DNA of 64,000 nt from a virus. Numbering within the stretch: the first letter of the stretch is position 1; every line of letters starts with the position of its first letter. The notes below the pieces were generated by a model that saw only the letters and a list, made by a program, of their open reading frames with translations, had not been told where the DNA came from and searched no databases. The position numbers and the translations under genes are program-made. Positions 332 to 21,117 of the stretch are shown in pieces. The stretch lies in the IMG/VR virus record IMGVR_UViG_3300032315_000748. One strand, 5' to 3'.

Positions 332-389
332 TGTGCCACTTGTAGAGGTGGCACACTAAAAGAGCACTGACCCCAAAACCTGCTACAAT
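332..389 (+). promoter_or_regulatory. palindrome-promoter element copy 1
   Basis: TGTGCCAC-TTGTAGAG-GTGGCACA (332-355); TGn-TACAAT at 381-389; AAGAGG leader. Confidence 0.85.
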
Positions 390-410
390 AAGAGGACACA
401 AGCAAAGAAA

Positions 411-674
411 ATGACTGATTCCAATCTTTCTAAAATCCGACCCAAACTCCGCACAGAAGGTCGTGTATCTGGCAATTTTGGAAAAAATAAGGTAAAGGCA
501 GGAAGTCCCATTACGGGGATTGGAGTTACAAACGCAAAGGTAGTTAATATCACAACTACTAATGATTATCTAACTAAAATGTATTATGTGTTAGATAATG
601 CGACTGATTCTAAAATGAAACAGTTTGCTTATAATGAAATCAAATCTATTTTGATAAAAAAAGGTGTGTGGTGA
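411..674 (+). CDS. hypothetical protein
   Basis: 87-aa ORF directly after element 1. Confidence 0.75.
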   Translation: MTDSNLSKIRPKLRTEGRVSGNFGKNKVKAGSPITGIGVTNAKVVNITTTNDYLTKMYYVLDNATDSKMKQFAYNEIKSILIKKGVW

Positions 675-682
675 AATAACTG

Positions 683-782
683 ATAAATAATGATGCTTGT
701 GTTTGGTCGCAGAAGCAGAGATCGGGTGTCTTCGGGCACCTTTTCTTGTATAAATAGTAAAGACCAAACACAAAGTAGAACT
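683..782 (+). promoter_or_regulatory. homing endonuclease control leader: ATAAATA, antisense arm, cUUCGg terminator, TATAAATA, complementary arm
   Basis: ATAAATA 683-689; TTGTGTTTGGTC 697-708 complementary to GACCAAACACAA 762-773; GGTGTC-TTCG-GGCACC-TTTT 725-744; TATAAATA 749-756. Confidence 0.75.
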
Positions 783-1718
783 ATGGAAACTCCAAAGGAG
801 TATTACTATACCTATTATTCATATGAAGAATGGGGTAGAGGATATTTTGGAAGCAGAGGATGCAAATGTCTTCCAGAAGAAGATATAAACTACTTCGGTT
901 CATTCAAAGACAAAGCATTCAAACCAACTCAAAAAATAATATTCAAAAGTGATTATGCTACAAGAGAAGAAGCATATGCTGATGAGATTATTTTACAAGA
1001 ATATTATAAAGTTGTAGAAAATCCCCACTTTGCTAATAGGGCATATCAAACTTCTACAAAGTTTTGTATTCCAACAGAAGAGAGAAAAAAAATAAGCAAA
1101 AGAAATTGTGAGAGATTTAAAGAAGAAAAGATAGGAATATTTTCTTTTACTCCAGAAGAAAAAAAGTTTAATTCATTAAAAGGAGTAGAAACTTGTAAAA
1201 AACTAAAAAAAGGAGTCTCATTTTTATCATACGAAAAAAGAGTAGAAATTGGAAAAAGTTTAGCTAAAAATAAAAAAGGTATTCATTCTTTAACTAAAGA
1301 ACAAAGGTCAAAAATAGCAAAGAAAAATTATGAAGAAGGTAAAGGATTTGCAATACTTACCAAAGAACAAAGAATAGAAATTGGCAGAAAAAACTACAAA
1401 AATGGAGTAGGTCTTGCTTCTCTCACAAAAGAACAAAAAAGTGAAATTGGCAAGAAAACATTTATTGAGAAAAAAGGAGTTCATTCTTTACCCAAAGAAG
1501 AAACAATAAAAAATGCAATAAAAGGTGGAAAAAAATTAAAAGAACTTGGTGTGGGCATTCACGCAATTACTAAAGAAAAAAGAAGAGAAATAGTAGCAAA
1601 GACAAATTCCCAAAAATGGATGTGCCTTGAAACAGGTTTTATAACAAATGCAGGAACCCTTTCAAGATACCAAAGAGCAAGGGGAATAGATACAACAAAA
1701 AGAATAAGAATTGAATAA
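783..1718 (+). CDS. GIY-YIG (Seg-like) homing endonuclease with repeated basic DNA-binding modules
   Basis: N-terminal YTYYSYEEWGRGYFGSR...YFGS...REEAYADE...FAN GIY-YIG pattern; about 23-aa repeats (GIHSLTKEQRSKIAKK); start moved to ATG 783 after late promoter. Confidence 0.8.
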   Translation: METPKEYYYTYYSYEEWGRGYFGSRGCKCLPEEDINYFGSFKDKAFKPTQKIIFKSDYATREEAYADEIILQEYYKVVENPHFANRAYQTSTKFCIPTEERKKISKRNCERFKEEKIGIFSFTPEEKKFNSLKGVETCKKLKKGVSFLSYEKRVEIGKSLAKNKKGIHSLTKEQRSKIAKKNYEEGKGFAILTKEQRIEIGRKNYKNGVGLASLTKEQKSEIGKKTFIEKKGVHSLPKEETIKNAIKGGKKLKELGVGIHAITKEKRREIVAKTNSQKWMCLETGFITNAGTLSRYQRARGIDTTKRIRIE

Positions 1719-1723
1719 TTTGT

Positions 1724-1782
1724 TGTGACACTTTTTCTGGTGGCACAACAAAGTTCCACAAAGGCACCTGATGCCCTACAAT
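1724..1782 (+). promoter_or_regulatory. palindrome-promoter element copy 2
   Basis: TTGTTGTGACAC-TTTTTCTG-GTGGCACAACAA (1720-1751); TACAAT 1777-1782. Confidence 0.75.
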
Positions 1783-1808
1783 AGAGAAACACAAAATTAA
1801 CAGGGGAA

Positions 1809-2081
1809 ATGGTAATGGAACTTTCTACACAAAAACTGGAACGGATTTACAAAGAGTTGAAAGAGATTGTGAAGTTTGAAAACTCACTTCATATGATGGA
1901 TATGACCCTCAATCAAACTGATGTGAATACTCTTGAAGAAGTGATTTCTATGATTGAAGACATCGTGAATTATGACCCAACACCTTATTATCTTTATGAT
2001 AATTCTGGTGGGGAAGCACCTATGACTGCGAACGAACGACTTTCTGCTGCTTGGCAAGAACACCTACAACTTCATCGTTGA
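1809..2081 (+). CDS. hypothetical protein
   Basis: 90-aa ORF with GGGG SD after element 2. Confidence 0.75.
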   Translation: MVMELSTQKLERIYKELKEIVKFENSLHMMDMTLNQTDVNTLEEVISMIEDIVNYDPTPYYLYDNSGGEAPMTANERLSAAWQEHLQLHR

Positions 2082-2107
2082 TAAATAACTAAAAAGTATT
2101 TGTAAAG

Positions 2108-2881
2108 ATGAACTCTCAAGACCTTCACAATCTTCAAGAAGCTTATATGGATGTTTATAGTGAAGGTTATAAACCTCCTAGAGGTAAAATGACAAAAAGA
2201 ATCGCACATAAAATGTTTAAGGGGGTTAATACTCTTAAAACAGCTCATGATTCTGGTGAAGATTTAGCAGGGAGAACTACGGGGGGACAAATTGCGAGTC
2301 AAAAAAGTGAAAAACTTGCTAAACAAGCACAGAAAATATATCAAACAGCAAAACGTCATGACCCAGAATCCTCTCAAAGGAGGGAAAGAGAAAATAGGAC
2401 AGTTGGACAAATAGCAAAAGGAGATCCAGTATCAGCAAAAGTTTTAAGAGATAGATATAAGAAAAGAGGACTTCCCTTTAAGAGTAAGAATAATACTACT
2501 ATGAAGGCTATTAGAGATGGACTTATTGATGGAGTAAATGATGCCCTTGGGGAAGAAGTAAACATCTACGACATCATTCTTTCACATCTTCTTGATGAAG
2601 GTTATGCTGAAACACAAGAACAAGCAGAAGTCATTATGGTGAATATGAGTGAAGATTGGAGAGAGAGTATTATGGAAGCAATGAAACCACTTCCTGTGGG
2701 TAAAATGATTAAGCAGGCTGCAAGGCATAGCAACCCAGAACAAGTTACAAAAATGGCCAAGGTTGCAGATACTCATAATCCTAACAAGTCCCAAAGAAAA
2801 GAGGACGATAATAGAAGAGAAGGTGGTCGTAAAAGAGAAGCAGGAAGACCTAGGAGAAATGAACTTCAAGATAATTGGTAA
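2108..2881 (+). CDS. late-expressed cyanophage protein (possible internal head protein)
   Basis: ATAAATA at 2081-2087; cyanophage-type block DIILSHLLDEGYAET..AE.IM.NMSEDWRESI; internally duplicated basic module. Confidence 0.7.
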   Translation: MNSQDLHNLQEAYMDVYSEGYKPPRGKMTKRIAHKMFKGVNTLKTAHDSGEDLAGRTTGGQIASQKSEKLAKQAQKIYQTAKRHDPESSQRRERENRTVGQIAKGDPVSAKVLRDRYKKRGLPFKSKNNTTMKAIRDGLIDGVNDALGEEVNIYDIILSHLLDEGYAETQEQAEVIMVNMSEDWRESIMEAMKPLPVGKMIKQAARHSNPEQVTKMAKVADTHNPNKSQRKEDDNRREGGRKREAGRPRRNELQDNW

Positions 2882-2892
2882 ATTAAAATCTT

Positions 2893-2950
2893 GAGACCAC
2901 TTCCTGAACTGGCACACTAAACCGGCACAGACCCCAAAACGTGGTATATT
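2893..2950 (+). promoter_or_regulatory. palindrome-promoter element copy 3 (leader-hairpin subtype)
   Basis: GAGACCAC-TTCCTGAA-CTGGCACA; TGG-TATATT 2942-2950; hairpin GAGTGGTC/GACCACTC plus T-run 2955-2982. Confidence 0.75.
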
Positions 2951-2995
2951 AAGGGAGTGGTCAAAGCAGACCACTCTTTTTTATTTCTAACTAAA

Positions 2996-3250
2996 ATGGA
3001 ACAAACTTTTGGATTTCCTCCTGTTGATGGTCTTTACAATTCCCTGAGGAAACTTGATTATGTAAAACTTGGTGAAGATTTTATCTTCATTCTTGCTACA
3101 ATTTGTGCGGTTGTGGTTGGTGTTGTATCTTATGCCTACACCGCATTTCAGTTGTATTGGAATGATAATGGTGAAAGTATTGTAAATAGTATTACGACAA
3201 ACACTAATCGTGTTGTTGATTTTCTCTTTTACAATTCAACCGACCAGTGA
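2996..3250 (+). CDS. hypothetical membrane protein
   Basis: ATG 2996 (MEQTFG...), one hydrophobic segment FIFILATICAVVVGVVSYAY. Confidence 0.7.
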   Translation: MEQTFGFPPVDGLYNSLRKLDYVKLGEDFIFILATICAVVVGVVSYAYTAFQLYWNDNGESIVNSITTNTNRVVDFLFYNSTDQ

Positions 3251-3257
3251 TTGCCTT

Positions 3258-3314
3258 GGGACAGTTCAGCAACCGTCCCTTTGCCCTTGATCCGCACCCA
3301 AAAGGTGCTATACT
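3258..3314 (+). promoter_or_regulatory. palindrome-promoter element copy 4 (variant arms)
   Basis: GGGACAG-TTCAGCAA-CCGTCCC 3258-3279; TTGATC 3287-3292; TGc-TATACT 3306-3314; same 40.5-bp centre-to--10 spacing. Confidence 0.65.
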
Positions 3315-3336
3315 AACAGAGTTCACAAACAAGCAA

Positions 3337-3462
3337 ATGCCTCAAACACTAGATTTCACCGGAAACGCAACTACCTTTCTTGGATTAGTTGGTTTATTCA
3401 GCACTGCTCTCATCGTCTTCACTTCTTTTCGTCGTTTTCATAATTCTCCTCTCCGCAAATGA
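3337..3462 (+). CDS. small single-pass membrane protein
   Basis: MPQTLDFTGNATTFLGLVGLFSTALIVFTSFRRFHNSPLRK; start after element 4. Confidence 0.65.
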   Translation: MPQTLDFTGNATTFLGLVGLFSTALIVFTSFRRFHNSPLRK

Positions 3463-3680
3463 TTTACGACAAAAGTCTTTCTGAGTACGAAAAAGACCTG
3501 AAAGAATCAAAAAAGAAGTATGAAAAACTTCTCAAACAAATGAAGAAAGCAAGGTCGGAGCATCAGTATTACAATCTTTATGATGAAGCAGAACTTCTTT
3601 ATGAAGATATTGCCGACCTTCAACTACGAATTGCTGACTTACGCAAACAAAAGAAACTACAACAAGAACTGACTTATTGA
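3459..3680 (+). CDS. hypothetical coiled-coil protein
   Basis: 73-aa ORF, ATGA overlap, heptad pattern. Confidence 0.7.
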   Translation: MIYDKSLSEYEKDLKESKKKYEKLLKQMKKARSEHQYYNLYDEAELLYEDIADLQLRIADLRKQKKLQQELTY

Positions 3681-3681
3681 G

Positions 3682-3936
3682 ATGACTGACCTTTATTCTG
3701 AAATCCTTGAATTTGATAAAATGAACCTGAATATTGAGCAACTGATTGAAGATTATGCTTCGGACCTCGTAGAAGGAATGGACCTTGATACTTTGGTTCA
3801 ATTTGCCTATGATGTGATTGTAGAGAATCTAGAAGATATGAGTGTTAATGAGATTCTGGAACAAGTTGAAGTAAATGCTCCACATCTTCTGGAAGAATTG
3901 GACGTGGTTGTGCCAGATGTTGAACCGGCACAGTAA
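3682..3936 (+). CDS. acidic hypothetical protein (paralog of 13434..13646)
   Basis: LIEDYASDLVEGMDLDTLVQFAYDVIVENL aligns with VIDSYAQTILDGMDSKSMERFVYDTLVENL. Confidence 0.75.
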   Translation: MTDLYSEILEFDKMNLNIEQLIEDYASDLVEGMDLDTLVQFAYDVIVENLEDMSVNEILEQVEVNAPHLLEELDVVVPDVEPAQ

Positions 3937-3967
3937 AACAGCACAGACCCCTCAAACCTGCTATAAT
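3909..3967 (+). promoter_or_regulatory. palindrome-promoter element copy 5
   Basis: TGTGCCAG-ATGTTGAA-CCGGCACA inside 3' end of upstream ORF; TGc-TATAAT 3959-3967. Confidence 0.8.
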
Positions 3968-3990
3968 TACGAAGTAATCACCCAAAACCG

Positions 3991-4164
3991 ATGCCGACTC
4001 TTGATTATACTAATCTTCCTCTAACTTCTTATGAACGTTTGAGAGACACTTGTCGTTGTCTAACGATACACTACAACCTTATGTTGTGTTGGCCTTCTAA
4101 TGATGAAGTTGATAACTTATTTTTTCAAGAGAAGTTTGACCAGCATAAGTTCTACGACGTTTGA
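3991..4164 (+). CDS. hypothetical protein (57 aa)
   Basis: Manually translated ORF filling the space between elements 5 and 6. Confidence 0.6.
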   Translation: MPTLDYTNLPLTSYERLRDTCRCLTIHYNLMLCWPSNDEVDNLFFQEKFDQHKFYDV

Positions 4165-4171
4165 TATACCG

Positions 4172-4231
4172 TGTGCCACTTCTTCTGGTGGCACACTAAC
4201 CGTTGCCTGACGGTCCAATCCGTGTTATGAT
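4172..4231 (+). promoter_or_regulatory. palindrome-promoter element copy 6
   Basis: GTGTGCCAC-TTCTTCTG-GTGGCACAC; TTGCCT 4203-4208, 17 bp, TATGAT 4226-4231. Confidence 0.8.
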
Positions 4232-4261
4232 GACTACATCAACAGTTAAAGAGGTGACACA

Positions 4262-4399
4262 ATGATTGAAACTTCTCTCGTGCTTCACGAAGACCTTGAG
4301 TTCTTTGCTCATTATCTTGGTGTAGATTATGAAGACTATTATGAACTTTATCTTGGCATCGTTCAAGATGAAGAAGATGAAAGTCTAGTTGCTGTTTGA
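4262..4399 (+). CDS. small acidic protein (45 aa, ends -LVAV)
   Basis: GAGG SD; MIETSLVLHEDLEFFAHYLGVDYEDYYELYLGIVQDEEDESLVAV. Confidence 0.65.
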   Translation: MIETSLVLHEDLEFFAHYLGVDYEDYYELYLGIVQDEEDESLVAV

Positions 4400-4459
4400 T
4401 GATTATAGTCCTGGGATGACTCAAAAAGCACCAAAACCCTCCACTTTACTTTTTATATA

Positions 4460-4693
4460 ATGACTGCTCCTGCTTCTTTGATTGCTCTTGCTGCTGAACT
4501 CGTGGATACGAATCCTGCTGCTTCTCAACTGATTGTGAATCTTGGCAATGCTGAAACTGGTGATGAAGTGCTTGAAGCACTGAATACCTATGATGAATCC
4601 ATTCTTGATTCTCTAGAATCTGTTGATGAAGATGAAGATGAAGATGAAACTGATGAAGTTGAAGTTGATGAAACTGAACTCGTTGCTGTCTGA
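4460..4693 (+). CDS. highly acidic protein (ends -LVAV)
   Basis: 77-aa ORF with D/E-rich tail. Confidence 0.75.
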   Translation: MTAPASLIALAAELVDTNPAASQLIVNLGNAETGDEVLEALNTYDESILDSLESVDEDEDEDETDEVEVDETELVAV

Positions 4694-4705
4694 TAAGTAA
4701 TATCA

Positions 4706-4731
4706 GGGAGAGAGAAATCTCTTCCTTTCTT
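4706..4731 (+). terminator. intrinsic terminator-like hairpin
   Basis: GGGAGAGA-GAAA-TCTCTTCC followed by TTTCTT. Confidence 0.55.
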
Positions 4732-4805
4732 GTCTCAGTAGCTCAGATGGATAGAGCATCTCACTTCTAATGAGTAGGTCGGGGGTTCAAGTCCCTCCTG
4801 AGACG
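4732..4805 (+). tRNA. tRNA-Arg (TCT)
   Basis: Acceptor GTCTCAG/CTGAGAC; D arm GCTC/GAGC; loop CTTCTAA; T arm GGGGG-TTCAAGT-CCCTC; no encoded CCA. Confidence 0.92.
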
Positions 4806-4828
4806 TTATACAAACACCCTTCAAGACA

Positions 4829-5599
4829 ATGAAACTCAAACTATTAAGTGACCTTCATCTTGAGCACTATTGTGCTGGACAATACTTTGACCCAGGAGAA
4901 GGTGATGTTTTAGTTCTTGCTGGTGATATTCTTTGTGCCAAGCACTTGAAGAAGAATGGTTATCTTGCCGAAGTGTATGAAAAGTTCCTGACTGATTGTA
5001 GTAAGAACTATCAAAAGATTCTCTATGTCAAGGGAAATCACGAAGCATATGGATACAACTACGAAGGAGCACACAAAACCATTCAAGAGCATCTTCCTGA
5101 TAACTTTCAGTTGATGGAGAATGATACAGTCAAAATTGATGATTGGAACTTCATAGGTTTCACATTTTGGACTGATTTTCGTAATGAGAATCCATTAGAA
5201 ATGATGGATGCTCAACAGTATATGAATGATTACAAAGTCATTCGCATTACTTCCAATTTTCGTAAGTTGAATACAAATGATACTCTTGGTTTTCATAAGA
5301 AGAGCAAGGAGTATCTTCTCAATCAACTTCAAGAATTAAATGAGAATGTATTCGTCATTAGTCATATGGCACCGAGTTATCAATCGGTTGCTCCTCAATT
5401 TAAGAACACAGAAAATGGTGCTTTTGTAAGTGATTTGGATGATTTGATTTTAAGTTATCCTCAAATCAAATACTGGTGCCACGGTCACACTCACAACTTC
5501 TTTGATTATAAAATTGGAGATTGTCGTGTGATTTGTAATCCTTCGGGTTATCCCGGTCAGGACACAGGATTTAATCCAAATTTGATTTTGGGCATCTAG
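4829..5599 (+). CDS. calcineurin-like metallophosphoesterase
   Basis: SDLHLE, LAGDI, GNHE, SHMAP, HGHTH motifs. Confidence 0.9.
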   Translation: MKLKLLSDLHLEHYCAGQYFDPGEGDVLVLAGDILCAKHLKKNGYLAEVYEKFLTDCSKNYQKILYVKGNHEAYGYNYEGAHKTIQEHLPDNFQLMENDTVKIDDWNFIGFTFWTDFRNENPLEMMDAQQYMNDYKVIRITSNFRKLNTNDTLGFHKKSKEYLLNQLQELNENVFVISHMAPSYQSVAPQFKNTENGAFVSDLDDLILSYPQIKYWCHGHTHNFFDYKIGDCRVICNPSGYPGQDTGFNPNLILGI

Positions 5600-5648
5600 A
5601 TATAATGGGAATACTTATTCTCAATTACAAACATTACTAAAAAGGTCG

Positions 5649-6125
5649 ATGGATTACTTAAAGATTGAAAGTGGTTCTCAAGTTCTGCTACTTAACGCAG
5701 ACTACAACCCAATTAACATTTGCTCATATCGTAAGGCAGTTATTCTTTCACTGAAAAACAAAGTTCAGGTTCTATCCAAGAGAGTAATTAGACTGATAAA
5801 CTATGTGCGTCTTCCATTCTCACGTCTAATGAGCACAGCACCCACACGCAATCTCATTATGAAACGTGATGGATATATCTGTTCTTATTGTGGAGCAAAG
5901 GAACAATTAACGATTGACCACATTCTACCTACATCCAAAGGTGGGCAGAATACTTGGGAGAATATGACTACTTGTTGCTTGAAGTGTAATTCCAAGAAAG
6001 GGGATAAACTACTGAAAGAAACAAATATGATTCTTCATAATCCTCCAACTATTCCATTCAGCAAAATCACTTTGACCATTAAGCAATCTCGTAATCCTGA
6101 ATGGACTGAATACAATTATGCGTAA
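5649..6125 (+). CDS. HNH endonuclease (McrA-like)
   Basis: VLLLNADYNP N-terminus; RDGYICSYCG, LTIDHILPTSKGG, WENMTTCCLKCNSKKG. Confidence 0.9.
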   Translation: MDYLKIESGSQVLLLNADYNPINICSYRKAVILSLKNKVQVLSKRVIRLINYVRLPFSRLMSTAPTRNLIMKRDGYICSYCGAKEQLTIDHILPTSKGGQNTWENMTTCCLKCNSKKGDKLLKETNMILHNPPTIPFSKITLTIKQSRNPEWTEYNYA

Positions 6126-6135
6126 AGTATAGTGA

Positions 6136-6193
6136 TGTGCCACTCGTAGGGGTGGCACACTAAACGAGCAGAGACCCTAGGACCTGCTATAAT
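6136..6193 (+). promoter_or_regulatory. palindrome-promoter element copy 7
   Basis: TGTGCCAC-TCGTAGGG-GTGGCACA; TGc-TATAAT 6185-6193. Confidence 0.85.
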
Positions 6194-6214
6194 AAGAGGA
6201 CACAAGCAAAGAAA

Positions 6215-6340
6215 ATGTCTACTCCAAATTGGCAACACAATTCAGGAAAACAAAAGAATACTAAAGGTTTGTGTAAGGGCAAACTCAAATCCCGCAAGCA
6301 AGCACTTCAAGCACTCAAATCTAAACTGAATTTCAAATGA
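6215..6340 (+). CDS. small basic hypothetical protein (41 aa)
   Basis: MSTPNWQHNSGKQKNTKG...; follows element 7 leader; ATGA overlap with next ORF. Confidence 0.65.
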   Translation: MSTPNWQHNSGKQKNTKGLCKGKLKSRKQALQALKSKLNFK

Positions 6341-6519
6341 CTGAAAACAAACGATACAAAATCACTTTGGTTGTTGATACTGACATTCATCCTCGTAAAT
6401 GGATTGCCGAAGTCGTTACTGATTGTATGGAGGGACACGAAGACCTTTTAGAGTGGGAGGTAGAAGAAGTCTCCAATAATTTTGAATTGCTTTCTTCAAT
6501 TAACGACGTTCCTAACTGA
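6337..6519 (+). CDS. hypothetical protein
   Basis: 60-aa ORF in coupled operon. Confidence 0.65.
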   Translation: MTENKRYKITLVVDTDIHPRKWIAEVVTDCMEGHEDLLEWEVEEVSNNFELLSSINDVPN

Positions 6520-6521
6520 TT

Positions 6522-6923
6522 ATGACTGAATCCACCAACGAAGTTCTTCATTATACACAAGTTCTTTGCGAAGTTCTTCGTGAGAACTACAAGCAATACA
6601 GTATTGACTCTCATCGTCATTACATCACAAAAGGTGAGAATGTAGAGTATCACCAAGAACAAATTGATAAACTCTGTGAAGGTGAAGACCTTAATGAATA
6701 TATCATTGATAAAGGTCGCAAATACTATAAGATTGTGATGAAAGATCACGGTCACGGTCAAAAACACGCACACTTGTTCGTAGATATGAATACTGGGGAT
6801 TGTTACAAGCCAGCATCTTGGAAAGCACCTGCCAAAGGTATTCGTTATAATCTTCTTGATGCTACATCCCGTGAGGAAATGTATAGGAGAGCAGACTGGG
6901 CAGGGTCGTACACTTACAAATAA
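6522..6923 (+). CDS. conserved phage hypothetical protein
   Basis: GRKYYKIV...HLFVD..TGD.YKPASWKAPAKG.RY motif recognised from cyanophage proteins. Confidence 0.8.
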   Translation: MTESTNEVLHYTQVLCEVLRENYKQYSIDSHRHYITKGENVEYHQEQIDKLCEGEDLNEYIIDKGRKYYKIVMKDHGHGQKHAHLFVDMNTGDCYKPASWKAPAKGIRYNLLDATSREEMYRRADWAGSYTYK

Positions 6924-6975
6924 TCAAGACCCAATCATTCTGGTATAAATAGAAATAGTTAGTATCCAATCAACT

Positions 6976-14476: not shown

Positions 14477-14478
14477 TT

Positions 14479-14715
14479 ATGAACCGCACACTTCAACAAC
14501 TGAAAGAATCGGTAGAAAAACTGATTGAACAACAAGGTGCCGAAGCATCTTGTGCTGCGTTCATCTTCACCAAAGAAGATGTATATGATGATAATGGTTT
14601 CTATTTTAGTGAGGAAATCACCAAAAAAGTCCTCAACGATTTGAATAAAACTGATTCCATTTTAGAAAAGGCATTTGGATGCCTTGAAGATTACATCAAG
14701 GAGCACACAAAATGA
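14479..14715 (+). CDS. hypothetical protein
   Basis: 78-aa ORF. Confidence 0.7.
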   Translation: MNRTLQQLKESVEKLIEQQGAEASCAAFIFTKEDVYDDNGFYFSEEITKKVLNDLNKTDSILEKAFGCLEDYIKEHTK

Positions 14716-14915
14716 CTCAAATCTCTTTCACATCTGGTGAGTTGTATGACATCATCTCTGCTCTTCAACTTGTAGAAGAAGGAGTGTATGATGATGGAGA
14801 CCATCAAGGTGCTGCTTATTATCAAAATATGATTCAACAATTTGAACTCATTCATTCTAAATTGCTAGAACGACCGGGGGAAGATAGAGTAGCAAACTTG
14901 GTGCTTGCTGATTGA
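14712..14915 (+). CDS. hypothetical protein
   Basis: 67-aa ORF ending just before element 12. Confidence 0.7.
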   Translation: MTQISFTSGELYDIISALQLVEEGVYDDGDHQGAAYYQNMIQQFELIHSKLLERPGEDRVANLVLAD

Positions 14916-14920
14916 CCCTA

Positions 14921-14978
14921 TGTGCCACTTGTAGCACTGGCACACTAAACCGGCACAGACCCTAGGACCTGCTATAAT
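14921..14978 (+). promoter_or_regulatory. palindrome-promoter element copy 12
   Basis: TGTGCCAC-TTGTAGCA-CTGGCACA; TATAAT 14973-14978. Confidence 0.85.
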
Positions 14979-15003
14979 AAGAGGACACAAGCAAAGGAAA
15001 CTG

Positions 15004-15216
15004 ATGGATAATCAATTCAAACCACAGATTACTTTGTGGACCCGCAAAGAACCAAATCTTAAATGTTTGCTTCTTCGTATTCTTACTCCGATTGCTGGAC
15101 TGATTGATTCTCTCATTTCTATTTTTACTCTCACTCTTGTTGTGAGTAATTTTGAAATGGAAGTAGTCACTCTTCACGCATACGAATACTTTCAGTCCAA
15201 AATCAAACAAAAATAA
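15004..15216 (+). CDS. hypothetical protein
   Basis: 70-aa ORF after element 12. Confidence 0.65.
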   Translation: MDNQFKPQITLWTRKEPNLKCLLLRILTPIAGLIDSLISIFTLTLVVSNFEMEVVTLHAYEYFQSKIKQK

Positions 15217-15390
15217 ATGAACTACCTTCCCATCATCATTAAATGAAGAACATAAAAATTTTGATTATTGGATTTCTTGTAGTTGTGACGTTTCCTAACT
15301 TTTTAACGGGACTTCATTCTATCAAAAATGATGTGACTTTTCTTTATTGTTCTGTGTCTAAATCTTGTAATGAAACTTACTAATTGTAAT

Positions 15391-15543
15391 ATGAATCAAG
15401 CAGAGTGGTATATAATGTATTCTCTTCTCTATAATGCTTATTCTTACTCTGCGAATCGTGATGAACAGATTCGCAAGAATCTTGGAGAGATGTTAGAATA
15501 TATGATTGAATACGAACAACACTTTCTCAAACGTCCTGCTTAA
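15391..15543 (+). CDS. hypothetical protein (50 aa)
   Basis: Manually translated MNQAEWYIMYSLLYNAY... Confidence 0.5.
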   Translation: MNQAEWYIMYSLLYNAYSYSANRDEQIRKNLGEMLEYMIEYEQHFLKRPA

Positions 15544-15548
15544 ATCAA

Positions 15549-15809
15549 ATGACTAACACTACCATCACTCTCAACCAATTCCACAATCTGCTTGCTGATG
15601 CTTATGCTGTCTGTGTGAATGATATTCTATATTTTGTAGGGTATGATACGGATGATAATCCTTACATCGCTGACAATGATGGGCAGGATTATGTTGATCT
15701 CTCCACTGTAGATGGTGACATTGAAGTGGATGATTATGCTGTGTCATTTTGGGTACAAGGAGAACCCATTCGTATGCTATTTCTCAACATCGCACCCCTG
15801 AACAAATGA
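15549..15809 (+). CDS. acidic hypothetical protein
   Basis: 86-aa ORF. Confidence 0.7.
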   Translation: MTNTTITLNQFHNLLADAYAVCVNDILYFVGYDTDDNPYIADNDGQDYVDLSTVDGDIEVDDYAVSFWVQGEPIRMLFLNIAPLNK

Positions 15810-15985
15810 CTGACACCGAAGTTTATGAAATGATTTGCCGTATGAAAGCATATGGTGGGTCATTTGTTGTTGCTCTATCAAATGCTTTTCAAAGTGCTGA
15901 TGGGCAAAATAAGCAACGATTGATTGATGCTTTTCCTGACTATGTTAGTGAGTATGGACCAACCAGTAGGTTTCCTACTTACTGA
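15806..15985 (+). CDS. conserved small phage protein
   Basis: YGGSFVVAL..AF..AD..N..RL..AFP motif; ATGA-coupled start. Confidence 0.7.
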   Translation: MTDTEVYEMICRMKAYGGSFVVALSNAFQSADGQNKQRLIDAFPDYVSEYGPTSRFPTY

Positions 15986-15990
15986 TGAGA

Positions 15991-16049
15991 TGTGCCACTT
16001 GTAGAGGTGGCACACTATATCCCCAAACCCCCTCAATCCGTGCTATGAT
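15991..16049 (+). promoter_or_regulatory. palindrome-promoter element copy 13
   Basis: TGTGCCAC-TTGTAGAG-GTGGCACA; TGc-TATGAT 16041-16049. Confidence 0.85.
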
Positions 16050-16069
16050 TACGGAGTAATCAAGACAAA

Positions 16070-16264
16070 ATGAAACAAGAAATGACCATCATCTCTTCAT
16101 ATAGTGGATGTACGAAAGAAGATATTATGAATATGCCAGAAGATAAACTACGAGAGGCAGTGATTGCGGCATTTTCAGTTGAATGTCGTAACTTCGCTGA
16201 AAATGATAGTTGGGTGGGTTCATTTCTTCTTCCAGATGAAATCGCAGACGCATTTAGGGGTTAA
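16070..16264 (+). CDS. hypothetical protein (single-gene cassette)
   Basis: 64-aa ORF between near-identical elements 13 and 14. Confidence 0.7.
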   Translation: MKQEMTIISSYSGCTKEDIMNMPEDKLREAVIAAFSVECRNFAENDSWVGSFLLPDEIADAFRG

Positions 16265-16301
16265 TTAGTATAATCTGTCTCACACGAGTCCAATGATACG
16301 G

Positions 16302-16360
16302 TGTGCCAGTGCTACAACTGGCACACTATATCTCCAAACCCCCTCAATCCGTGCTATGAT
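16302..16360 (+). promoter_or_regulatory. palindrome-promoter element copy 14 (inverted spacer)
   Basis: TGTGCCAG-TGCTACAA-CTGGCACA; TATGAT 16355-16360. Confidence 0.85.
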
Positions 16361-16383
16361 TACGGAGTAATCAAGACAAAACG

Positions 16384-16659
16384 ATGAAGTTTCAAGTTAC
16401 TCAAATTGAGTTTGACTTTGACAACTCTTGCCCGTATTGTGGTGGGGATTGTTACAACGATCACGACAATGCTTGTGATGGTTTTCTTGGTGATATTGAC
16501 CATTTAGTTCAACAAAAGCAACAAACTGTTGATGAAACTATCTCCCAAATCTGGGAGGTTGATGATGAAGAGCATCTGGTAGATAAAATTAGTGACGAAA
16601 CTGGTTGGTGTATCAAGTCCATTTATTATACTGTCTTTATTCCCGGCGTTTATTCCTAG
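16384..16659 (+). CDS. hypothetical protein with Cys cluster
   Basis: IEFDF...CPYCGGDC......C...WEVDDE...TGWCIKSI. Confidence 0.7.
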   Translation: MKFQVTQIEFDFDNSCPYCGGDCYNDHDNACDGFLGDIDHLVQQKQQTVDETISQIWEVDDEEHLVDKISDETGWCIKSIYYTVFIPGVYS

Positions 16660-16684
16660 TCCTACAAACAAACAACAAAAACCG

Positions 16685-16849
16685 ATGACAACTTTCAATT
16701 ACACCGTTGCTCTCTATCGTTTTGCTTATGGTGTAGTTAGTATGTCCGAACAAGACAACATTCGGTATAGTTATGGTGAGTGCCTTGATTGTAACATTGG
16801 AATTGATATTTTTTATGATAATGTAAATCGTGCCCTGTGTGCCCTCTAA
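16685..16849 (+). CDS. hypothetical protein
   Basis: Start at MTTFNY after AC-rich leader. Confidence 0.55.
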   Translation: MTTFNYTVALYRFAYGVVSMSEQDNIRYSYGECLDCNIGIDIFYDNVNRALCAL

Positions 16850-16888
16850 TTCTTTCACATTCATTACAACAAACCAACAAACAAACAA

Positions 16889-17191
16889 ATGTCTTATTCT
16901 GAAAAGTACCAGCAACTGGAAAATCAAATTCAAGAACTTCAAAATGAAGTAAAACGTCTCAAAAAAGAAGAAGCAGACAATAGACTTCCTGGTGGCTTTA
17001 ATATTGATTATGTTAAGAAAGTAATTGCTGGTGATACTGATTACCTTGATGATGCCTTTGATTTTTCTGGTACTCCGCAAGGTTATGATTATTGGGGGGA
17101 CATCTATAATGAGATTGAACCACTTCGTAAGAAAGACATCATTCAACTTCAAAAATGGGTGATTATCTATCTGGAACAAAATCAAAAGTAA
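16889..17191 (+). CDS. coiled-coil/TPQG-DYW family protein, paralog 1
   Basis: KYQQLENQIQELQ...AFDFSGTPQGYDYW...IIQLQKWVIIYLEQNQK. Confidence 0.75.
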   Translation: MSYSEKYQQLENQIQELQNEVKRLKKEEADNRLPGGFNIDYVKKVIAGDTDYLDDAFDFSGTPQGYDYWGDIYNEIEPLRKKDIIQLQKWVIIYLEQNQK

Positions 17192-17233
17192 ATCATAATT
17201 CTTACTCATTCAAAACACATTACAAACAACTTT

Positions 17234-17434
17234 ATGAACTCCGACAAGCAACGCAATTCTCAAATTGAAGTCTCGGTTGATTATATGAATGGCCAAGTTC
17301 TTCATCTCATTAACAACGATCAAGCAGAAAATGCGAAAGCAATTCTTATGGAATGGGAAGAATTGATTACACGAGAAGATGATGGTGATAATGTTACAGT
17401 CATTTGGATGAAGAATCTAGCAGGGTCTTGCTGA
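17234..17434 (+). CDS. hypothetical protein
   Basis: 66-aa ORF. Confidence 0.65.
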   Translation: MNSDKQRNSQIEVSVDYMNGQVLHLINNDQAENAKAILMEWEELITREDDGDNVTVIWMKNLAGSC

Positions 17435-17448
17435 GTCCAATGATGCGA

Positions 17449-17506
17449 TGTGCCAGTTGTAGCACTGGCACAGTAAATGAGCACAGACCTGAAAATGTGG
17501 TATTCT
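17449..17506 (+). promoter_or_regulatory. palindrome-promoter element copy 15 (leader-hairpin subtype)
   Basis: TGTGCCAG-TTGTAGCA-CTGGCACA; TGg-TATTCT 17498-17506; hairpin 17513-17535. Confidence 0.85.
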
Positions 17507-17572
17507 TAAGGAGTGGAGGGAGGACGGCCTTCCGCATTGTTTAGTTCTCAAACAAATCTTCATTTTTTCATC

Positions 17573-17848
17573 ATGCACCCCGACGATTTTTACGGCAACA
17601 GCAATAACAAAAGCAACACCAAAGAACTTCCTTCTGAGATTGATACTTTGGATGATGCGATTGCTTATCTGCAAAAAGCACGGCAGACTATGGGTGGAAA
17701 TACTAAGTTTCGTGTGGTGGATAATAGCTATACGAAGGAATGGGATGAGTATCAGTTTGTTATTGATGTGATACTCACTGGTAATAAGTCTCTGATGGCA
17801 AAGTCTCGTAGTGGTAATAACGAAGACTACGTTCTGTTTGTCTACTAA
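17573..17848 (+). CDS. hypothetical protein
   Basis: Start at MHPDDFYG. Confidence 0.65.
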   Translation: MHPDDFYGNSNNKSNTKELPSEIDTLDDAIAYLQKARQTMGGNTKFRVVDNSYTKEWDEYQFVIDVILTGNKSLMAKSRSGNNEDYVLFVY

Positions 17849-17874
17849 ACTTCTTACTGAGTCCAATGATGTAA

Positions 17875-17933
17875 TGTGCCAGTAATCCTTCTGGCACATT
17901 ACACTCCCAAACGACCCTAGGACCTGCTATAAT
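17875..17933 (+). promoter_or_regulatory. palindrome-promoter element copy 16
   Basis: GTAATGTGCCAG-TAATCCTT-CTGGCACATTAC (12-bp arms, 17871-17902); TATAAT 17928-17933. Confidence 0.85.
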
Positions 17934-17962
17934 AAGAGGACACAAGTAAAGAAAAGCACCTG

Positions 17963-18136
17963 ATGACAACTGCACAAAAACTAGAAAAAGCATTTCTTCT
18001 AAATGTGTTTGCTCTGGTGAATGAAGTTCAAGGTAAGCACAAACTTCCTTCGCAGTTTCATTCTAATCGTAAATCAACTTGGGTGAAGCAAAATCACAAT
18101 CCCAAGCAAAAAAAAGATGCTCTTTCCCGTGTTTGA
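17963..18136 (+). CDS. hypothetical protein (57 aa)
   Basis: Manually translated MTTAQKLEKAFLLNVF... Confidence 0.6.
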   Translation: MTTAQKLEKAFLLNVFALVNEVQGKHKLPSQFHSNRKSTWVKQNHNPKQKKDALSRV

Positions 18137-18201
18137 ACTCAATGAGTAAACTTCTTGATCAAATTGAACAAAACGTAATTAAACAATCGCAATTCAAAAC
18201 T

Positions 18202-18405
18202 ATGTCTTCTTCCTCTTCTTCATCTTCTGGTGGTGTCAGTTTCACTGGTTTGCTGACCGTATTGTTTATCGGTCTAAAACTCACTGGTCATATTACTTGG
18301 CCTTGGATATGGGTATTGTCTCCCATCTGGATTAGTGCTCTGATTGGTATTGCTATCCTTACCATTCTTCTTATTGTTGCTATTGTTGCTGGAGTCTTCA
18401 AATGA
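18202..18405 (+). CDS. conserved phage membrane protein
   Basis: poly-S, GGVSFTGLLTVLFIGLKLTGHITWPWIWVLSPIWI motif; start could be 18142. Confidence 0.75.
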   Translation: MSSSSSSSSGGVSFTGLLTVLFIGLKLTGHITWPWIWVLSPIWISALIGIAILTILLIVAIVAGVFK

Positions 18406-18677
18406 ACTTCTCTGATCTCAATTTTCAACCCCATCCTGTTGCTGCTGGTGGTGTTCAGGCAAAACACTTCTTTGATAATGGTTATGGTATTAGTGTTGTA
18501 AAGTTTAAGGGTTCTTATGGTTATGAACAAGGTCTGTATGAGAGTGCAGTTCTCAAAGGAACCGAAGAAAATTGGCACATCTGCTATGATAGTGTAATCA
18601 CTGATGATGTTCTAGGTTATCAAACCGAAGAAGAAGTTGAAGTCCTATTATACGAAATTGAGAATATCTATATCTAA
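18402..18677 (+). CDS. conserved phage hypothetical protein
   Basis: FDNGYGISVV...SYG...GLYE.AVL...ITDDVLGYQT motif. Confidence 0.75.
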   Translation: MNFSDLNFQPHPVAAGGVQAKHFFDNGYGISVVKFKGSYGYEQGLYESAVLKGTEENWHICYDSVITDDVLGYQTEEEVEVLLYEIENIYI

Positions 18678-18715
18678 AAACTAAATCCCCACATTAACAA
18701 CACAACAAAACTGAA

Positions 18716-19012
18716 ATGACAAAGTATCAAGAACTTGAGAATCAGATTCAAGAACTTCAAGCAGAAGTTGAAAGACTGAAGCAAGAAGAAGCAAGCAATA
18801 AACTTCCTAATCTCTTTAAGATTGATGTTGTAAAAAAACTACTTGATACTGGTAATATTGATATCATTGAGTATGCCTTTGATTGGTCTGATACTCCACA
18901 AGATTATGGATATTGGTATAGCATCTTTTGTTCGAATGAACCACTAACTGATAAGGTCATCATTCAACTTCAAAAATGGGTGATTATCTATCTGGAACAA
19001 AATCAAAAGTAA
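18716..19012 (+). CDS. coiled-coil/TPQG-DYW family protein, paralog 2
   Basis: Same N- and C-terminal motifs as 16889 ORF. Confidence 0.75.
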   Translation: MTKYQELENQIQELQAEVERLKQEEASNKLPNLFKIDVVKKLLDTGNIDIIEYAFDWSDTPQDYGYWYSIFCSNEPLTDKVIIQLQKWVIIYLEQNQK

Positions 19013-19041
19013 TTTTATCTCTTTCTACACAAACAAAACAA

Positions 19042-19509
19042 ATGAAAAAGTACGAACAACTGGAATCTCAGATTCAAGAACTTCAAGCAGAAGTTGAAAG
19101 ACTGAAACAAGAAGAAAAGGCAGAACAAATTGATCTTTCAACTTGTATTGTGGGACAATTAGTTCAACTTCGCAATGGTGAGTTTGCTTGTTTTCAACGT
19201 AAGGATGGTGCATTTTATGTTGTTGGAGTTCTTACTTATGAAAAAGATGGAAGACAGCATAACTACGCTCTTGAAAGAGATTATGATGTAGTGAAAGTCT
19301 TTCCTGCCGAGATTCCGGTTCCCGATTCATTTAGCGTTTGTTGGTCCAAAGAAGTTCTAAAAGGACGTATTTCTTATCTTAATGCAGCATTTCATTTTGC
19401 TCAAACTCCGCAAGGAGACCAGTATTGGAGAGATATTTACACTGGTAAAACTAATCTCTCTTTTGGTGATATTATTCTTATTCAGAAGTGGATCATTCAA
19501 TCACTCTGA
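19042..19509 (+). CDS. coiled-coil/TPQG-DYW family protein, paralog 3 with inserted domain
   Basis: MKKYEQLESQIQELQ...; inserted IDLSTC..GQLVQLRNG domain; AFHFAQTPQGDQYW. Confidence 0.75.
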   Translation: MKKYEQLESQIQELQAEVERLKQEEKAEQIDLSTCIVGQLVQLRNGEFACFQRKDGAFYVVGVLTYEKDGRQHNYALERDYDVVKVFPAEIPVPDSFSVCWSKEVLKGRISYLNAAFHFAQTPQGDQYWRDIYTGKTNLSFGDIILIQKWIIQSL

Positions 19510-19561
19510 ACGGTTAGCATACCCATCAGGGATGCTGATAGGTAGAAGAACCGTAGACCCC

Positions 19562-19590
19562 TTGACAACCACCCCAAAACGTGCTATGAT
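19562..19590 (+). promoter_or_regulatory. canonical sigma70 early promoter related to the element family
   Basis: TTGACA, 17 bp, TATGAT with TG extension; shares CCCCAAAACGTG spacer and AAGGGGACA leader but has no intact palindrome. Confidence 0.8.
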
Positions 19591-19613
19591 AAGGGGACAG
19601 ACAAACAAAGGAA

Positions 19614-19787
19614 ATGAGTGAGTTTCAAAAAATCATTCAAGAAGCAAACTTTCAATCAAACTCAAAGAACCAATTTATTCAAGAACTTTTGAAAGATAAA
19701 GTGTTCTGTTTATTGATGATTGAATCTTGTTTGATTGGATTTGTAGAGGGTGTGGTAGAAGCTATATTTCCTGATAAAGATAACTAA
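19614..19787 (+). CDS. hypothetical protein (57 aa)
   Basis: AAGGA SD; manually translated. Confidence 0.55.
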   Translation: MSEFQKIIQEANFQSNSKNQFIQELLKDKVFCLLMIESCLIGFVEGVVEAIFPDKDN

Positions 19788-19812
19788 CTCACTCTTACTC
19801 ACTCAAAACAAA

Positions 19813-19941
19813 ATGACAACTCGTTTCACCTACGACATTCAAACTCAACAACTTGTTTATGCTATTGTTGATAAAGATGGTGTTTGTAAGTATCTGACTA
19901 CTTCCATCACTGATGCTATCAAACTCACTCAACTAAACTGA
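19813..19941 (+). CDS. hypothetical protein (42 aa)
   Basis: MTTRFTYDIQTQQLVYAIV... Confidence 0.55.
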   Translation: MTTRFTYDIQTQQLVYAIVDKDGVCKYLTTSITDAIKLTQLN

Positions 19942-19944
19942 GAA

Positions 19945-20241
19945 ATGACTATTACCGCAAACGAACTTCTTCAACTCCTTCGTAAAGTTATAAACCTTGG
20001 TTATACTTATGATGTGTCCGAAGAAGATGTATATGGTGGTTATAACATTGTAATTCGGTATTGGGATAAAAGAAAAACGACTGTAAAACTTTATATTAGT
20101 AAGTACTCTAATAGATATGCTGAATTCAATGAAGTGATGGAAGAGTTAGATAAACAACTAAACGCAAGGGTGATTGATAAAGAGAAAGAAGAACGATTCA
20201 AACAGTATCTGAAACTAAAAGAGGAGTTTGTAAATGACTGA
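19945..20241 (+). CDS. hypothetical protein
   Basis: 98-aa ORF. Confidence 0.7.
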   Translation: MTITANELLQLLRKVINLGYTYDVSEEDVYGGYNIVIRYWDKRKTTVKLYISKYSNRYAEFNEVMEELDKQLNARVIDKEKEERFKQYLKLKEEFVND

Positions 20242-20431
20242 CGAACAAACCCTAAAAAATGTAAAAGAATACTGGATTAACAAATTATCTACAATAAGTC
20301 CTTCTTATGATTTTGAATCTTATATGTATCAATTATTTCTTAGATTTGCATCTTTAGAAGAACTAGAAGGAAACTATGTTCTTTACAGCACACTCAAGAA
20401 AATTGATGCTTATACTGAATACAACACATAA
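20234..20431 (+). CDS. hypothetical protein
   Basis: 65-aa ORF. Confidence 0.6.
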   Translation: MTDEQTLKNVKEYWINKLSTISPSYDFESYMYQLFLRFASLEELEGNYVLYSTLKKIDAYTEYNT

Positions 20432-20456
20432 ACATAACTCACTCAACTAAACTGAA

Positions 20457-20654
20457 ATGATTTTACTTTACAAAGAAGACCAAGGCGTTGTTTATACTCT
20501 TGATGAGTTCAATGAGTTATTGTATGCTCCTATCTACACTGATAACACAATCAATCTAAATGAGTTTGATGTTGTGAAAGATGTGGATGGAAATGATGAA
20601 CTTGAAGAAATTCAAGATGACTTGATTTATATGACTGATTCTCAAGGATTATGA
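20457..20654 (+). CDS. acidic hypothetical protein
   Basis: 65-aa D/E-rich ORF. Confidence 0.65.
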   Translation: MILLYKEDQGVVYTLDEFNELLYAPIYTDNTINLNEFDVVKDVDGNDELEEIQDDLIYMTDSQGL

Positions 20655-20839
20655 TTACTATGCGTCTCACTTCTAACTATGGTTTCATTCATACCCCTTT
20701 ATTCTATGTTGGATGGAGTCATTGTCAGTCACAAGATGAAGAACAATTTGGTTTTTCTATTGGTAATTTGTATGTTGGAGTATATAATCATAAGTGGTTT
20801 GGTGGTATTTTGAATGAATATGGTGTATTAGATAATTAA
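20651..20839 (+). CDS. hypothetical protein
   Basis: 62-aa ORF, last of early region. Confidence 0.6.
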   Translation: MITMRLTSNYGFIHTPLFYVGWSHCQSQDEEQFGFSIGNLYVGVYNHKWFGGILNEYGVLDN

Positions 20840-20895
20840 ATTAAATGTATTAAAAAACATTATGTGTTGATTTGTTAATGATTTGTTAATTGTAT

Positions 20896-20999
20896 CTTTA
20901 TGTGTTAATGAGTTCTTTTATCTGTTAATGCTTGATTGAACCTTCTACTTTATGTGTTAATGAGTTCTTTTATCTGTTAATGCTTGATTGAACCTTCTA
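20896..20999. repeat. perfect 52-bp tandem duplication within a TGTTAAT-rich tract
   Basis: CTTTATGTGTTAATGAGTTCTTTTATCTGTTAATGCTTGATTGAACCTTCTA x2; TGTTAAT at 20873, 20884, 20903, 20923, 20955, 20975. Confidence 0.95.
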
Positions 21000-21023
21000 C
21001 TTTTTATGGGTCTAAGCCAGATA

Positions 21024-21052
21024 ATTATAACACAAACCATCTAAAAAGTCAA
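21024..21052 (-). promoter_or_regulatory. leftward sigma70 promoter
   Basis: Minus strand TTGACT (21052-21047), 17 bp, TGt-TATAAT (21029-21024). Confidence 0.8.
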
Positions 21053-21058
21053 GTATTT

Positions 21059-21117
21059 CCAGACACTTGAACAACTGGCACAAGGCATCAACATTATATT
21101 CTGGGGTGTGTTATAGT
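21059..21117 (+). promoter_or_regulatory. palindrome-promoter element copy 17 (no downstream ORF)
   Basis: CCAGACAC-TTGAACAA-CTGGCACA 21059-21082; TGt-TATAGT 21109-21117. Confidence 0.7.

Follow-up and report, generated by a model that had tools for sequence, protein, structure and literature searches.

A recurrent palindrome ahead of early-type promoters in a T4-like cyanophage is probably a protein docking site and not an RNA hairpin

The window analysed here is the whole stretch of 64,000 nucleotides from the IMG/VR virus record IMGVR_UViG_3300032315_000748, and its left part carries 17 copies of a 24-bp dyad, TGTGCCAS-N8-STGGCACA (S is C or G), each of which lies at a nearly constant distance upstream of a -10 box. 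A first, sequence-only reading of the window had described these copies as a palindrome-promoter element, and the computational analysis reported in this work followed the element up in the window, in other phages and in the genomes of the host family. Our results suggest that each copy belongs to an early-type promoter cassette, in which the dyad is probably the double-stranded docking site of a symmetric protein and not an RNA hairpin. T4-like cyanophages are among the most abundant marine viruses.

Genomic context of the window

By its gene content, the window can be assigned to a T4-like cyanomyovirus of Kyanoviridae-like type. Its right 42 kb hold a T4-type virion module with genes for baseplate wedge, head-closure, sheath-stabiliser, large terminase, tail sheath, portal and scaffold proteins and with two giant open reading frames (ORFs) of 4067 aa and 2505 aa, and its left 21 kb are densely packed with small ORFs on the + strand. 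The genes of this early region include a UvsW-like helicase, a metallophosphatase, several HNH-type endonucleases and two tRNAs, the latter being the only Rfam matches in the whole window; the dyads match no RNA family. There is no close isolate among the 50,697 phage records searched by megablast with positions 1-20000, which gave short matches only, and a blastn search with one cassette returned nothing at E 1e-3. The closest relatives are IMG/VR contigs, the best of which (locus L046) is 92-97% identical. The order of small genes, helicase, small genes and baseplate genes is the same as at 43-60 kb of the isolate Syn9.

Seventeen copies of one promoter unit

The pattern scan of the window found 11 exact copies of the dyad, compared with 0.00 in 100 shuffles. 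When up to three mismatches were allowed, the copies at 1724, 3909 and 11402 were added, giving 14 against 0.22 expected, all within 332-17898. The 17-copy element of the sequence-only reading is real, as every site that it listed is at least a partial member: 11 copies are exact, 2 have one mismatch and 4 have one degenerate arm, and all lie on the + strand between 332 and 21082. At 2893 and 21059 the promoter-proximal arm is perfect, the TT/AA inner bases are kept and the distal arm is degenerate, while at 11402 the distal arm is perfect and the proximal arm degenerate. The copy that had been given as a variant at 3258 is a degenerate member as described, but its register is 3257; it reads TGGGACAGTT-N4-AACCGTCCCT, with 4 mismatches at 20 specified positions. 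As had also been noted, the structural module is free of copies, since the scan with up to three mismatches found none at 22-64 kb. The 17 cassettes and one related promoter are listed below.

332-389, + strand: cassette 1; exact dyad at 332-355, -10 box TGcTACAAT at 384-389, gene 411-674
1724-1782, + strand: cassette 2; dyad with one mismatch (TGTGACAC, the allowed A variant), -10 box TACAAT without TGn, gene 1809-2081
2893-2980, + strand: cassette 3; distal arm degenerate, proximal arm perfect, -10 box at 2945-2950, hairpin at 2951-2980
3257-3314, + strand: cassette 4; degenerate dyad, -10 box TGcTATACT
3909-3967, + strand: cassette 5; dyad with one mismatch, overlapping the 3' end of ORF 3682-3936, gene 3991-4164
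4172-4231, + strand: cassette 6; exact dyad, -10 box TGtTATGAT, gene 4262-4399
6136-6193, + strand: cassette 7; exact dyad, gene 6215-6340
8785-8880, + strand: cassette 8; exact dyad in the divergent region by the minus-strand bilin reductase gene, -10 box at 8837-8842, gene 8884-9117
11402-11460, + strand: cassette 9; proximal arm degenerate, ahead of the UvsW-like helicase gene 11470-12714
13000-13057, + strand: cassette 10; exact dyad, gene 13085-13261
13650-13708, + strand: cassette 11; exact dyad with a G/G inner pair, gene 13733-13936
14921-14978, + strand: cassette 12; exact dyad with a C/C inner pair, gene 15004-15216
15991-16049, + strand: cassette 13; exact dyad, gene 16070-16264
16302-16360, + strand: cassette 14; exact dyad, gene 16384-16659
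17449-17535, + strand: cassette 15; exact dyad, -10 box at 17501-17506, hairpin at 17513-17535, left end of a 426-bp unit missing in the relative L093
17875-17933, + strand: cassette 16; exact dyad, gene 17963-18136, right end of the L093 indel
21059-21117, + strand: cassette 17; distal arm degenerate, -10 box TGtTATAGT, facing a gene-free, repeat-rich region
19562-19590, + strand: related promoter without a dyad; consensus TTGACA-17-TATGAT, leader of the same type

The order within a unit is the stop codon of the previous gene, the 24-bp dyad, about 29 nt, the -10 box, a short leader with a ribosome-binding site and the start codon. The -10 box starts 27-30 nt past the dyad end in 17 of 17 copies, and the fixed phasing claimed earlier (40.5-42.5 nt from the dyad centre to the first base of the -10 box) was confirmed except for the copy at 3257, the full range being 39.5-42.5 nt. 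The -10 box is TGn-extended in 16 of the 17 copies, the exception being 1724, and stop codons lie 0-14 nt upstream of the dyad in 10 of 17, both in agreement with the sequence-only reading. The start codon follows 9-66 nt past the -10 box, and the copy at 21059 has no downstream ORF. It had further been stated that most copies are without a -35 element, and indeed a two-hexamer sigma-70 scan finds only 4 of the dyad promoters; its total for the window, 69, is moreover at the shuffled expectation of 69.9, and the dyad promoters are thus not ordinary -35/-10 promoters. The same scan does find the related promoter at 19562, which has TTGACA-17-TATGAT and no dyad, as reported before. In the wider phage set described below, a -35 match at four or more of the six positions was seen in 27% of the sites. 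No MotA-type box, (a/t)(a/t)TGCTT(t/c)A, was seen by eye between the dyad and the -10 box. A third GCAC(A) half-site, 7-18 nt past the dyad, is present in 8 of 16 window copies (the one at 3257 left out), but in only 20 of 230 sites elsewhere, which ruled it out as a general feature of the element; it is a trait of the cassettes of this lineage.

The direct-repeat families of the window are 72-103 nt long and extend from a point shortly before the dyad as far as the start codon. A flank of about 20 nt (GAGTCCAATGAT...) with stop codons, located at 16285-16301, 17432-17448 and 17858-17874, precedes three dyads of the window, and it is also found before several dyads in the relatives L093, L105 and L016, which indicates that the repeated unit of this lineage begins ahead of the dyad. 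Three cassettes (2945-2990, 8837-8880 and 17501-17540) have their -10 box, TGgTATATT or TGgTATTCT, directly before a GC-rich hairpin, and the same unit occurs in the relatives L014, L063 and L111. The hairpin at 2951-2980 has a clear T-run and is terminator-like, and that of cassette 8 has a weak T-rich tail and was not called by the terminator scan. The predicted transcript of these cassettes would be only about 30 nt long, or else an attenuated leader.

Distribution of the dyad in phages and host genomes

The viral loci used for comparison (about 1.03 Mb of IMG/VR sequence) were chosen for at least one exact dyad, and copies within one genome are paralogous. The exact dyad occurs in at least 120 IMG/VR stretches, and in at least 120 IMG/VR contigs the same dyad with the same phasing stands ahead of very different downstream sequences. 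Among 160 non-redundant sites, oriented by the better -10 box, the offset is 29 nt in 80, 30 nt in 44 and 28 nt in 28. These sites have no information content upstream of the dyad, and the 29 nt between the dyad and the -10 box hold little, namely a weak -35-like TTSAAA and a C-run. Sites are also present in the isolates S-PM2 (5), P-SSM2 (6), P-SSM4 (1), S-RSM4 (1) and Syn9 (2), with 0 in the reversed controls. In near-complete relatives they are gathered in one small-gene region, with 12 sites within 15 kb of a 171-kb sequence and 10 within 10 kb of a 146-kb sequence. Syn9 has few exact copies, and it carries phased sites with the variant proximal arm GTGTCCAC upstream of gp55, gp68 and the gp75 helicase gene, the last being in the same position as the site at 11402 before the UvsW-like helicase gene. 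These sites (Syn9 positions 43113, 47204 and 49078; locus L290) have (C/G)TGTC(C/T)AC in place of STGGCACA, as do several IMG/VR loci and the locus L089. The window is distinguished by its unusually high number of dyads and by a lineage-specific TGn plus GCACAGACCCC stretch.

The novelty implied by the sequence-only reading does not stand, as the element is common to many T4-like cyanophages, including reference isolates. Doron et al. in 2016 reportedly described a novel regulatory element of early genes in the T4-like cyanophages Syn9 and P-TIM40, which is said to replace the normal -35 and to be abundant and conserved in cyanophage genomes and metagenomes. The dyad of the window is, most probably, this early-gene element, which it resembles in its many copies upstream of small early-region genes in a T4-like cyanophage. 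The window is thus a high-copy example of a known element, and what is new is sharper evidence for a DNA-reading protein and a named candidate for it. To our knowledge, no factor that reads the early-gene element of cyanophages has been identified.

In host-family genomes the dyad with at most one mismatch was found in 21 of 301, which is not commoner than the reversed control, and Rfam found no small RNA beside these one-mismatch matches. The strict everted site (half-sites tail-to-tail) was found in 1 of 401 host-family genomes. These two results led us to abandon the view that the phage took the dyad over from a host regulon. In prokaryote genome contigs (596 Gb), the exact dyad appeared, among the matches listed, as scattered singles in unrelated phyla, at about the level of chance (about 500 estimated). 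One Synechococcus metagenome-assembled genome had all 4 of its dyad sites on one 194-kb contig, which is probably a binned phage.

A probable protein site rather than an RNA hairpin

The sequence-only reading had preferred a dimeric protein operator to an RNA hairpin, and this preference is upheld by the rigid spacing of the arms, by arm changes on one side only, and by the lack of both covariation and a T-tail. In the viral loci, hexamer pairs of the form GTG[CA]CA...TG[GT]CAC number 390 at a gap of 10 nt and 0 at gaps of 6-9 and 11-14 nt. Such invariant spacing argues against a hairpin, whose loop could change in length, whereas a protein that measures DNA allows no such change. The 239 phased variant dyads show 471 arm deviations, and 445 of these affect one side only (394 break a pair and 51 give G-T). 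Only 18 of the 471 are compensatory, and 15 of these 18 are one change, the swap of C5/G20 to A/T, which yields the other allowed half-site GTGACA and which was also found one-sided 148 times. At the inner pair (positions 8 and 17), 104 of the 160 non-redundant sites (65%) have bases that are not complementary. T9, T10, A15 and A16 are conserved as sequence in the same sites, with no covariation above the marginals, so that the half-site is the 10-mer TGTG(C/A)CA(G/C)TT around a 4-bp centre. Downstream of the dyad there is no T-run, and none of the 21 terminator-like sites of the window is a dyad. The arms are identical in phages with unrelated flanks. Judging by these patterns, it is probable that a protein binds the dyad.

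A cyanobacterial regulator as candidate binder

The element CGRE1 of yfr2 promoters is a palindrome of 21-22 nt with GTTG or GTTA flanks that begins 55-57 nt before the start site, and it pulled down and gel-shifted the GntR regulator PMM1637, which is of the PlmA type (PMC6191309). We found matches to Cyano-1 (RF01701), taken to be Yfr2-family genes, in 39 of 41 host-family genomes, and upstream of them lies CAAC-TG(G/T)CAC-N-GTG(C/A)CA-GTTG or at least its promoter-proximal half, (G)TGACAGTT. This upstream element appears to be CGRE1, judging by its fit to the published description rather than by the published logo. The phage half-site is the same as the CGRE1 half-site at every one of its 9-10 positions, the C/A alternative included: (T)GTG(C/A)CAGTT. 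The arrangement differs, since CGRE1 is head-to-head (B-N1-A, with a 1-nt centre, at about -56 to -35), whereas the phage dyad is tail-to-tail, or everted (A-N4-B, with a 4-nt centre, at about -65 to -42); both lie upstream of the core promoter. The phage dyad thus does not have the CGRE1 geometry (head-to-head, 21-22 nt, GTTG or GTTA flanks), and CGRE1-type sites are absent from the window and number 3 in the viral loci. In the locus L089, however, abutting dyads bring the half-sites into the order A-N4-B-N1-A-N4-B, in which the CGRE1 junction is reproduced exactly, three times; the presence of both junctions together suggests that one protein family can use both. The arrays of L089 lie at 6967-7010, 8250-8300 and 8408-8440, and in them gaps of 4 nt and 1 nt alternate strictly.

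A search of five large relatives, of which one is 89% complete, gave no gene with a GntR domain, which fits a factor supplied by the host. No DNA-binding or regulator family was found in the 20 scanned early-region ORFs of at least 108 aa, a scan that most of the small ORFs fall outside. A GntR binder encoded by the phage was rejected on these grounds. The binder is most likely a host factor that is present when the DNA enters the cell, and the regulator of CGRE1 occurs in all cyanobacteria. The best candidate would be the cyanobacterial GntR-type protein PlmA/PMM1637, although we hold this assignment to be tentative and well short of even, because the geometry differs from that of CGRE1. In the literature searched, neither the motif nor PlmA was connected with the promoters of cyanophages. 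It is conceivable, if doubtful, that host PlmA, a GntR protein linked with the PII-PipX network of nitrogen and energy signalling, is recruited by T4-like cyanophages to fire or time their early genes, through CGRE1 half-sites in an everted arrangement found only in phages. If PlmA were recruited in this way, the first step of infection would be coupled to the carbon/nitrogen or light status of the host. If the host regulator takes part, the nutrient and light state of the host would influence when infection sets in, which bears on the viral control of marine primary production. The match of the half-site to the PMM1637 (PlmA) site makes the switching-on of early genes a simple question for binding and reporter assays.

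Cassette boundaries and recombination

The sequence-only reading had also proposed that the units serve as cassette boundaries, which is supported only in part: a single clear indel has its junction within a dyad, but there is no excess over other gene boundaries. A unit of 426 bp, bounded in the window by the dyads at 17449 and 17875, is missing from the relative L093, whose hybrid cassette has the upstream flank of 17449 and the spacer and downstream part of 17875, with the switch inside the left arm. This event is of the type known from the promoter early stem-loop units (PeSLs) of T4-type phages. A block homologous to 17874-18669 lies elsewhere in L093, beside a cassette. Clusters of homology breakpoints fall in cassettes in 12 of 53 cases, 2.6 times the cassette share of the DNA. 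As 17 of about 75 gene boundaries (an estimate; about 23%) carry a cassette, the 12 of 53 equal the cassette share of gene boundaries, and there is no excess. Several indels relative to L046 and L093 are without a dyad, one of them being a homing-endonuclease insertion. The cassettes are long direct repeats and as such are now and then substrates of homologous recombination by which genes are added or removed; the units are occasional recombination substrates and not a general boundary marker.

Comparison with known systems

PeSLs are known in the T4-type phage pairs RB49/phi1, PST/T4 and nt-1/KVP40 (PMC2839356, PMC4122927). The units of the window resemble them in that a repeated stretch of about 70-100 nt combines a palindrome, an early promoter, a Shine-Dalgarno sequence and a start codon, in that these stretches are clustered in hyperplastic regions, and in the occasional indel junction. 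However, the stems of PeSLs are generic, vary from one phage group to another and are interpreted as terminators, whereas the arms of the window dyad are invariant in sequence across distant phages; in addition, the dyad has rigid spacing, pairing that is not selected and no T-tail, and most copies are without a -35 element. The units thus have the anatomy of PeSLs but are without their structural stem, terminator and full sigma-70 promoter, and they would work like a promoter class controlled by an activator or an operator. The MotA class of phage promoters is similar in that a box upstream of a good -10 stands in for the -35. The MotA box, though, is a single 9-bp box at -30 that is read by phage MotA with AsiA, while the element of the window is a dyad further upstream with an unlike sequence, and T4-like cyanophages are without motA and asiA (PMC5780444). 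In cyanobacteria, the class I/II activator sites of the CRP/NtcA family share with the dyad the two-fold symmetry, the fixed distance to the -10 box and the promoters without -35. The NtcA site is GTA-N8-TAC at -41.5, and the dyad differs from it in sequence, in half-site spacing and in position, with its centre at about -53.5.

Proposed function and alternative explanations

We propose that each unit of this T4-like cyanophage would be an early-type promoter cassette, 72-103 nt in length, and that its dyad would consist of two 10-bp half-sites, TGTG(C/A)CA(G/C)TT, set tail-to-tail around a 4-bp centre. With a predicted start site 7 nt past the -10 box, the dyad would lie at about -65 to -42, where a two-fold symmetric protein would dock next to RNA polymerase and set the activity of the promoter. 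A host factor, with PlmA/PMM1637 as best candidate, may read the dyad when the DNA enters the cell. That the bound protein is an activator, by which a promoter class would be defined, is plausible and about an even matter, since both the location of the dyad (about -42 to -65) and the weakness of the -35 elements agree with it. Several points weigh against this picture. The viral loci were chosen for the exact dyad and include related copies within a genome, so that the counts overstate independence. Extended -10 boxes, present in 16 of the 17 copies, can work without a -35, and the promoters could thus be independent of an activator. The hexamer centres are 16 bp apart in the phage dyad and 7 bp apart in CGRE1, and the dyad is centred about 8 bp further upstream; with its everted geometry unlike CGRE1, a simple PlmA dimer may not fit, and the finding of the everted site in 1 of 401 host-family genomes means that no host regulon uses it. 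The palindromes of the window, furthermore, would fold well as RNA, at -7 to -17 kcal/mol in 13 of the 16 copies that were folded, and the inner pair is complementary in 8 of the 11 exact window copies, so a secondary RNA role of the dyad may exist.

The folding energies would also suit a composite of the PeSL type, in which the palindrome acts as an RNA stem-loop, terminating or stabilising the transcript upstream of it, and an ordinary host-type promoter stands behind it. The published PeSLs have this architecture too, a stem-loop before a promoter, a Shine-Dalgarno sequence and a start codon, present in many copies within a hyperplastic region (PMC4122927), and the stop codons close upstream of the dyad in 10 of 17 copies agree with it. 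We regard this explanation as improbable, as the dyad has no T-tail, its loop length is constant over 390 sites, 445 of 471 arm changes are uncompensated, 65% of sites have a mismatch at the inner pair, and the arms are identical across phages with unrelated surroundings, while PeSL stems differ between phage groups. It is less improbable, though still unlikely, that the dyad is the operator of an early protein encoded by the phage that shuts the early promoters off. In its favour, 16 of 17 copies have an extended -10 box that could suffice by itself, the everted order of half-sites is specific to phages (1 of 401 host-family genomes), and early classes in T4-like phages are generally known to go off after a few minutes. 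But a site upstream of -42 is a poor position for repression, no GntR-type gene was found in the five large relatives and no DNA-binding family in the 20 scanned early ORFs of at least 108 aa, a set without most of the small ORFs, and the identity of the half-site with that of the site of a host regulator would need convergence. A main role as a recombination site for mobile gene cassettes, either site-specific or as a homologous hotspot, with the promoter link being secondary, seems very improbable to us. The 426-bp unit at 17449-17875 missing in L093 with a junction inside the left arm, the displaced homologue of 17874-18669 beside a cassette in the same relative, and the mini-circle model of PeSLs (PMC4122927) speak for such a role. 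Against it stand the 12 of 53 breakpoint clusters compared with about 23% of boundaries, the many indels relative to L046 and L093 that are without a dyad, and the fixed phasing to the -10 box in hundreds of unrelated contexts, which a recombination site would not need.

Other features of the window

The only clear minus-strand gene of the early region encodes a ferredoxin-dependent bilin reductase (8110-8736, - strand), and its start faces the cassette at 8785. The two tRNA genes are tRNA-Arg(TCT) at 4731-4806 and tRNA-Thr(TGT) at 10560-10632. The former is one of two tRNAs whose loss in Synechococcus WH5701 has been linked to Syn9 resistance (PMC11726456). The ORF at 690-1718 has a stretch of 112 bp (683-794) in common, at 93% identity, with a region of phage S-SRM01 that is annotated 'nuclease associated modular domain 3 protein' and 'hypothetical protein'. 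This ORF together with the dyad cassette at 1724 (region 645-1807) is an insertion relative to the closest relative, L046. Other HNH-type genes lie at 5649-6125, 6976-7476 and 10732-11367. A paralogous family of small genes is found at 16889-17191, 18716-19012 and 19040-19509; according to the DNA repeat families, its N-termini look like coiled coils and its members have a C-terminal block in common (repeat families D5-D8).

About 1.2 kb without genes (20840-22010) separate the small-gene region from the baseplate module, and this stretch could be a replication origin or control region. It contains a perfect tandem duplication of 52 bp (20896-20999) and a 57-nt repeat in three places (21405, 21633 and 21709). 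Six DnaA-box-like sites lie on both strands at 21155-21304, five being TTTTCCACA and one TTATCCACA (complements counted), and one more match to TT[AT]TCCACA is located at 8343.

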